From: an uncultured Flavobacteriales bacterium
GTDB lineage: Bacteria > Bacteroidota > Bacteroidia > Flavobacteriales_D > SKUL01
Assembly: GCA_937911795.1 (NCBI GenBank)
Contig: CALDPJ010000025.1
Location: 1 to 36,414, forward strand
Direction: 5' to 3'
Length of the DNA stretch: 36,414 nt
This document shows positions 1 to 36,414 of the stretch, piece by piece (the first letter of the stretch is position 1; the number at the start of each line of letters is the position of its first letter). Made by a program: the position numbers and the translations under genes. Under the pieces are notes generated by a model. It worked only from the letters and a program-made list of their open reading frames with translations, did not search any database and was not told the origin of the DNA.

Positions 1-96
1 TTCATTTTATTGTCAGTATTATTTATTTTCCAATCGGACTATTGTCGAAATCCAAGTTTCCCTATTTGAGGGGCCTTGAATTTCGTGCCGTGTTGT

Positions 97-1035
97 CTAA
101 AGATTTTTTGTTTTTACCATTTGTGCCATCAATTCAGCCTCTGTAACAACCTTGTCATTGGCATAGGCCTTGCCGCTCATGTGGACAATACCTCGGCGGA
201 TGGGAGACATAAGCTCCAGTTTAAAGATCAAAGTGTCTCCCGGAAGCACCTGTTGTTTAAATTTGACATTGTTTATCTTCATAAAAAATGTGAGATAGTT
301 TTCTGGGTCTGGCACGGTACTTAAAGCCAAAATCCCACCTGTTTGCGCCATGGCCTCCACTATTAGAACCCCTGGCATTACTGGGGCTCCAGGAAAATGG
401 CCGACGAAAAAAGGCTCATTCATGGTAACGTTTTTAAGACCCATTACATAGTCATCTCCCAATTCCATGATCTTGTCCACCCACTTAGGATCGCCATTCA
501 AGCCACCCAAAGCAGAACCTTGAACTACAGGAATGTTGTCGCCATCGAAATCGTAGAAGCTTAATAGATCTCTGATCTCCATCTCAACAAGCTCAAGAAG
601 TTCAGGATCATCTACCAAGTCAACTTTGTTCATGAATACTACTAGGGCAGGAACACCTACCTGACGAGCCAACAATATGTGCTCTCTTGTTTGAGGCATA
701 GGGCCGTCAGTCGCAGCTACCACCAAGATAGCACCGTCCATTTGAGCAGCACCTGTTACCATGTTCTTTACATAGTCGGCGTGACCAGGACAGTCTACGT
801 GTGCATAGTGTCTCTTTTCTGTAGTATACTCTACGTGTGAAGTATTGATGGTGATACCTCTTTCTTTTTCTTCCGGCGCATTGTCGATAGAGTCAAAGCT
901 GCGCGTTTCAGAAAGACCAAGACCAGCCAATACAGTAGTAATTGCAGCTGTCAATGTGGTTTTTCCATGATCCACGTGACCGATAGTACCGATATTCACG
1001 TGGGGTTTGGAACGATCATAAGTTTCTTTAGCCAT
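97..1035 (-). CDS. tuf: Chimeric ORF: elongation factor Tu GTPase domain (aa 1-~192) fused in frame to the C-terminal ~120 aa of 3-hydroxyacyl-ACP dehydratase FabZ
   Basis: The N-terminus [28 protein letters not shown]...DCPGHADY...NKVDL is an unmistakable EF-Tu G domain. From aa ~193 the sequence [42 protein letters not shown]... is the FabZ hot-dog fold with the catalytic GHFPG/EAMAQ motifs. EF-Tu domains II and III are absent. ATG at 1035. Confidence 0.85.

Positions 1036-34999: not shown

Positions 35000-36414
<1,415 letters not shown>

Follow-up and report, generated by a model that had tools for sequence, protein, structure and literature searches.

The question raised by this locus is whether a single open reading frame that couples the GTPase (G) domain of elongation factor Tu (EF-Tu, encoded by tuf) to the hot-dog dehydratase FabZ is a gene of a flavobacterial genome or a product of its assembly. 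The window, meaning the whole stretch of 36,414 nt that was analysed, is an entire contig (C25), the largest in a fragmented metagenome-assembled genome (MAG; G000) of 434 contigs and 3.18 Mb (N50 9.5 kb, completeness 91.8%, contamination 4.7%) that serves as a species representative. The frame occupies positions 97–1035 on the reverse strand, inside the last 1035 nt of the contig, and encodes 312 aa. An earlier note had described an in-frame union of the two domains across a peptide plausible for both, VDKIMEL, and had set a k-mer-level misjoin against microhomology-mediated recombination; all tests run here favour the misjoin. Judged from its sequence, the frame is very probably (probability about 0.93) an in silico chimera at the end of a metagenome-assembled contig and not a gene. 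It consists of three segments with different affinities, the words at its junctions are shared between the adjoining parents, and native copies are present elsewhere in the MAG. The last ~880 nt of the contig are almost certainly made up of pieces from other bacteria, with three organisms and two junctions in all.

Both halves of the frame are readily recognised by Pfam, with GTP_EFTU (PF00009) at aa 10–182 (E 7e-63) and the FabA-like hot-dog domain (PF07977) at aa 193–301 (E 6e-29), so that the in-frame EF-Tu–FabZ reading frame noted earlier is present. A position check likewise placed VDKIMEL at aa 186–192 (nt 460–480), the DNA that could derive from either parent amounting to 22 nt. No Pfam match to EF-Tu domains II (PF03144) and III (PF03143) or to LpxC (PF03331) was found in the 312-aa frame. 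Its closest EF-Tu matches, at 95% identity, are all 395 aa in length and all have domains II and III. The hot-dog match spans profile positions 23–138 of 138, leaving ~22 N-terminal positions absent, and the hot-dog N-terminal strand that precedes LVDKIMEL is replaced by EF-Tu sequence.

Like the Bacteroidota tuf locus (tRNA-Thr/Tyr/Gly/Thr–tuf–tRNA-Trp–secE–nusG), the contig has the tRNA cluster, the 5′ untranslated region (UTR), the start codon and a complete G domain; unlike Bacteroidota EF-Tu, its reading frame is without domains II and III, which lie on another contig (C349), and another lineage supplied roughly two thirds of the G domain. The native tuf 5′ UTR (89% identical to that of the same-genus genome G001) and the cluster of tRNA-Thr(GGU), tRNA-Gly(UCC), tRNA-Tyr(GUA) and tRNA-Thr(UGU) occupy positions 1036–1478 on the reverse strand, ARAGORN locating the tRNAs upstream of tuf at 1100–1478. 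The native 5′ end of tuf (about codons 1–50) follows at 886–1035, also on the reverse strand, and is marked by G001-like informative sites. In sliding-window comparison of DNA identity, the 5′ UTR and first 75 nt of tuf are 89–95% identical to G001 and 52–84% to the tuf homologue L011, the values for the first 75 nt being 95% versus 84%. Affinity is different at 482–852 (reverse strand, about codons 62–185), where the tuf sequence is foreign, resembles that of L011 and L013 and points to a Cytophagales-like donor. Here, 60-nt windows are 90–98% identical to the tuf of L011 and L013 (P0002) and merely 60–88% to G001, to a second same-genus genome (G004) and to the tuf on C349 of the same MAG. 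Over 482–809, overall identity is 95% to L011 tuf versus 72–78% to G001, G004 and C349, and the tuf of the L011 lineage is itself only 73% identical to that of this genus.

The breakpoint was located by a maximum chi-square test with 10000 permutations, using sites at which G001 and L011 differ. The sequence is G001-like at 45 of the 52 informative sites 5′ of the breakpoint and L011-like at 91 of the 94 sites 3′ of it, with a maximum chi-square of 105 between window positions 883 and 880, a value that none of the 10000 permutations reached. The zone of this first junction (853–885, reverse strand) holds a conserved 20-nt word, GAAGAAAAAGAAAGAGGTAT (853–872), which the window, G001 and L011 have in identical form and which lies at or adjoins the switch. 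On these affinities, the EF-Tu part of the frame is a mosaic of two lineages. Only one junction had been described previously; the one at 460–481 stands, while a second switch point within the EF-Tu part, at ~853–885, had been missed. The earlier placement of the start of the foreign part at ~460 has to be corrected to ~880, most of the supposed EF-Tu G domain being from a third organism.

The second junction is the 22-nt word GGTGGACAAGATCATGGAATTG (460–481, reverse strand), which encodes xVDKIMEL, is common to the tuf and fabZ parents and coincides with a switch in identity: matches to the tuf homologues L010, L011 and L013 stop at this word, and identity to the lpxC-fabZ locus L009 starts abruptly there. 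This locus, in GCA_964463595.1 (G031:C12), has a normal arrangement (lpxD–lpxC/fabZ–lpxA–efp) and encodes an intact 468-aa LpxC-FabZ (P0121) that is 100% identical over 127 residues, with frame residues 186–312 as the query. Window positions 1–481 share 98% DNA identity with L009, a match that covers the fabZ stop, the spacer of 91 nt and the beginning of lpxA. On the reverse strand, this stretch comprises the foreign 3′ part of lpxC-fabZ at 97–459 (FabZ hot-dog, aa 193–312; ~98% DNA identity) and a foreign, colinear tail at 1–96, formed by the fabZ–lpxA spacer and the first 5 nt of lpxA (ATGAA; ~98%). The remaining ~13 kb of L009 are only 64–73% identical to this MAG and are colinear with its contig C268, so the 481-nt tail belongs to a different organism. 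The sequence to the left of ~460, previously attributed to a different locus should the join be an artefact, is thus foreign indeed, although its source is a different genome and not merely a different locus.

The FabZ part is correspondingly distant from the lpxC-fabZ of the MAG itself on C268, with just 64% amino acid and 67% nucleotide identity. The nearest named relative of the fabZ donor is Aequorivita ciconiae (95% amino acid identity), and the nearest named relatives of the two donors differ in order (Cytophagales-type EF-Tu versus Aequorivita-type LpxC-FabZ). GCA_964463595.1 itself has no tuf anywhere in the genome. The locus resembles Bacteroidota LpxC-FabZ (lpxD–lpxC/fabZ–lpxA) in that its C-terminal 120–127 aa are identical to P0121 and the spacer and lpxA start are colinear, and departs from it in that LpxC, the upstream lpxD and the first ~22 hot-dog profile positions are absent, the copy of the MAG being on C268. 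The neighbours upstream of the FabZ part are instead tuf and tRNAs, while downstream only the spacer and the lpxA start match L009.

The word at the second junction occurs naturally in intact genes of both kinds. GGTGGACAAGATCATGGAATTG is found exactly in the intact lpxC-fabZ of L009 and also in the intact tuf of a Cyclobacteriaceae MAG (L014, JBPRGG010000099.1, 6207–6230), where it lies inside TGGGTGGACAAGATCATGGAATTG, followed by ATGGATGCT, and VDKIMEL is encoded by the same codons in this tuf and in the lpxC-fabZ of the Aequorivita-like MAG. Since the peptide encoded by a shared word, and its frame, are identical in the two parents of that join, the reading frame is kept across both joins; being preserved automatically, the open frame is no evidence for a real fusion. 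A length of 20–22 nt corresponds to the smallest k of common metagenome assemblers. The parent proxies are only 95% (tuf) and 98% (fabZ) identical to the window, and the crossovers are to be read as zones, not single bases.

Native counterparts of both genes were retrieved from the MAG, as the earlier note had anticipated for a misjoin. Contig C268 carries a complete 467-aa LpxC-FabZ between lpxD and lpxA, which is the sole LpxC of the bin by tblastn. For tuf, the expectation was borne out in part: the 3′ part with secE–nusG is present on C349, but it begins at codon 77, on the contig end. C349 (1–959) continues from there into domains II and III, the only set of these domains in the bin (tblastn), and the gene order after tuf is (secE)–nusG–rplKAJL–rpoBC. 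The tuf of C349 shares 84% identity with both G001 and G004, the figure for G001 versus G004 being 83%, and only 74% with L011. G004:C40 and G001:C38 are colinear with the body of C25 (70–73% identity); in G004, an intact tuf and tRNA-Trp come after this tRNA cluster, with the same downstream synteny. C349 is likely the true neighbour of C25, and in the simplest reconstruction native C25 (to ~885) and C349 adjoin with ~70 nt of highly conserved tuf between them. The reciprocal product, LpxC joined to EF-Tu, was absent from the bin by tblastn, which fits a misjoin.

Comparison with relatives and public data gave no second instance of the fusion. In 30 of 30 related genomes tuf and fabZ are located apart from each other, by megabases where the genome is complete, so that the synteny check proposed earlier shows the two genes kept far apart, and the EF-Tu–FabZ fusion is absent from these 30 relatives. 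In a set of 5.8 billion protein clusters, the cluster of the chimeric protein has a single member, from one contig (C25), and the combination of PF00009 with PF07977 had no other case among the protein-cluster matches listed. Exact-pattern scans of JGI metagenome contigs returned neither the junction pattern (tuf side plus shared core) nor a donor-specific 38-mer of tuf.

Foreign tails are not confined to C25. The MAG has a mean GC content of 45.9% (SD 4.1), and 400-nt windows with at least 58% GC account for 33 of 868 terminal windows versus 0 of 3835 internal ones (Fisher p 4e-25). At least 33 (about 33–43) of the 434 contigs, ~8%, carry foreign tails, almost exclusively at contig ends, and such tails in MAG G000 are systematic. 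The high-GC tails have 58–77% GC and are 0.2–2 kb long (e.g. C402:19650–21537, C106:1–610, C208:1–820, C58:1–480 and C60:3075–4025), that of C402 being MetE-like with 73% GC and extending up to 2 kb. Hybrid reading frames were observed on C164, C208, C106 and C58, joining LysR-like sequence to YchF on C208 and unidentified sequence to citrate synthase on C106. On C164 (1–1788), a second in-frame hybrid ending in FabZ was found, in which high-GC (55–70%) PriA/PqiA-like sequence gives way, at the conserved GHFPGxPVMPGV motif, to the C-terminus of a Bacteroidota FabZ, with lpxA coming next. As GC content reveals high-GC donors only and the GC content of the C25 tail is ordinary, foreign tails are probably more numerous than this count. 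GC composition was also considered as evidence for the C25 tail itself and was dropped, as the tail (42–46%) is not separated from the contig body (44.9%).

A putative sequence of events can be proposed from these affinities. The native order would be tRNA cluster, tuf, tRNA-Trp, secE and nusG, and C25 would depart from it at about codon 50 of tuf. The path would switch at the 20-nt tuf-conserved word GAAGAAAAAGAAAGAGGTAT into the tuf of a co-occurring Cytophagales-like bacterium and, after ~370 nt, switch again at the 22-nt word GGTGGACAAGATCATGGAATTG, where tuf and lpxC-fabZ both encode VDKIMEL. It would then run through the fabZ–lpxA region of an Aequorivita-like flavobacterium and stop after 481 nt, with the rest of the native tuf left on C349. 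That the frame is an artefact of one kind or another is, from its sequence, highly probable. We infer that the joins date from assembly, in a de Bruijn graph of short k (about 21) or during contig extension, and not from the library, and such an origin is probable if the frame is an artefact. Template switching during PCR or other amplification could also have joined conserved stretches, the assembler then being faithful to chimeric reads. The joins at 20–22 nt microhomologies are as expected for this process, and rare chimeric molecules extending contig tips would suit the foreign tails at many contig ends, but such molecules are normally removed as low-coverage tips. Three serial segments joined at words of about k = 21, together with tails as long as 2 kb (C402), exceed typical short-read inserts, and the serial pattern is better suited to graph traversal or contig extension; an origin in the library is therefore unlikely.

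Two observations sit less easily with an assembly chimera, namely that the frame is intact over both joins, as it would be in a real fusion, and that the GC content of the tail is no different from that of the contig body. A real fusion would have arisen by microhomology-mediated recombination or horizontal transfer between the tuf G domain and a foreign fabZ fragment, yielding a GTPase–hot-dog protein. In keeping with this, the 312-aa frame is open, begins at a normal start downstream of native tRNAs and runs to a normal FabZ stop, and microhomology of the kind seen at the junction is a substrate of illegitimate recombination. Such an origin would, however, call for recombination twice in succession, each time with a different foreign donor, in a span of 400 nt and exactly where the contig ends, and the donor identities of 95–98% would imply an extremely recent event. 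It is further opposed by the native 3′ part of tuf, which lies on a contig end and overlaps the foreign stretch, by the intact lpxC-fabZ of the MAG, by the uniqueness of the protein among the 5.8 billion clusters, by the failure to find the junction in JGI metagenome contigs and by the similar foreign tails on ~8% of the MAG's contigs. In addition, the FabZ part is without its N-terminal ~22 profile positions, and an EF-Tu protein that lacks domains II and III is unable to bind aminoacyl-tRNA. We regard a real fusion as very improbable, and the same holds for its most specific form, a recent fusion of the tuf G domain with fabZ that would accompany intact copies of the two essential genes and tether a GTPase to a hot-dog dehydratase fold. 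A mixed origin, in which C25 and C349 stem from two organisms of the same genus in the bin, the C25 tuf is a natural inter-lineage recombinant and the fabZ join alone is artefactual, would draw on the 4.7% contamination estimate of the bin and on the proneness of tuf to gene conversion and recombination. It is nevertheless very unlikely, as the donor-like segment matches, at 95%, a lineage with only 73% tuf identity to the genus, the switch falls on a conserved 20-mer less than 400 nt from a demonstrably artificial join, and the bin holds a single set of EF-Tu domains II and III.

An assembly chimera of this kind has precedents. According to published benchmarks, most near-complete MEGAHIT MAGs contain interspecies chimeric contigs, which originate at repeats and conserved regions (bioRxiv 10.64898/2026.10.15.759294). 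As in those described previously, foreign and native sequence is joined in one contig at a conserved stretch (bioRxiv 10.64898/2026.10.15.759294; metaMIC, PMC9661791), and the chimera escapes marker-based scoring of completeness (91.8%) and contamination (4.7%). The foreign part of C25 differs from these interspecies chimeric contigs in being short (880 nt), of two donors and a contig-end tail, and both of its joins are in frame, producing a plausible-looking fusion. The biological significance of the fusion is essentially nil, and it should not be used for annotation, in counts of new domain architectures or in EF-Tu or FabZ phylogenies. Its relevance is to data quality: a species-representative MAG carries short foreign tails, some of them forming in-frame hybrid reading frames at conserved motifs, which marker-based quality control does not see. 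Odd fusions within ~2 kb of contig ends in MAG G000 are accordingly suspect, and an in-frame join across a shared peptide may stem from a misjoin at a shared word and not only from recombination.

At its other end (window 35000–36412, reverse strand), C25 terminates within gyrB, which is also highly conserved, and nothing in that region pointed to a foreign tail. In related MAGs tuf is a recurring contig break, the contig G001:C11 ending ~68 nt upstream of tuf and G004:C40 starting directly after tuf, in tRNA-Trp.
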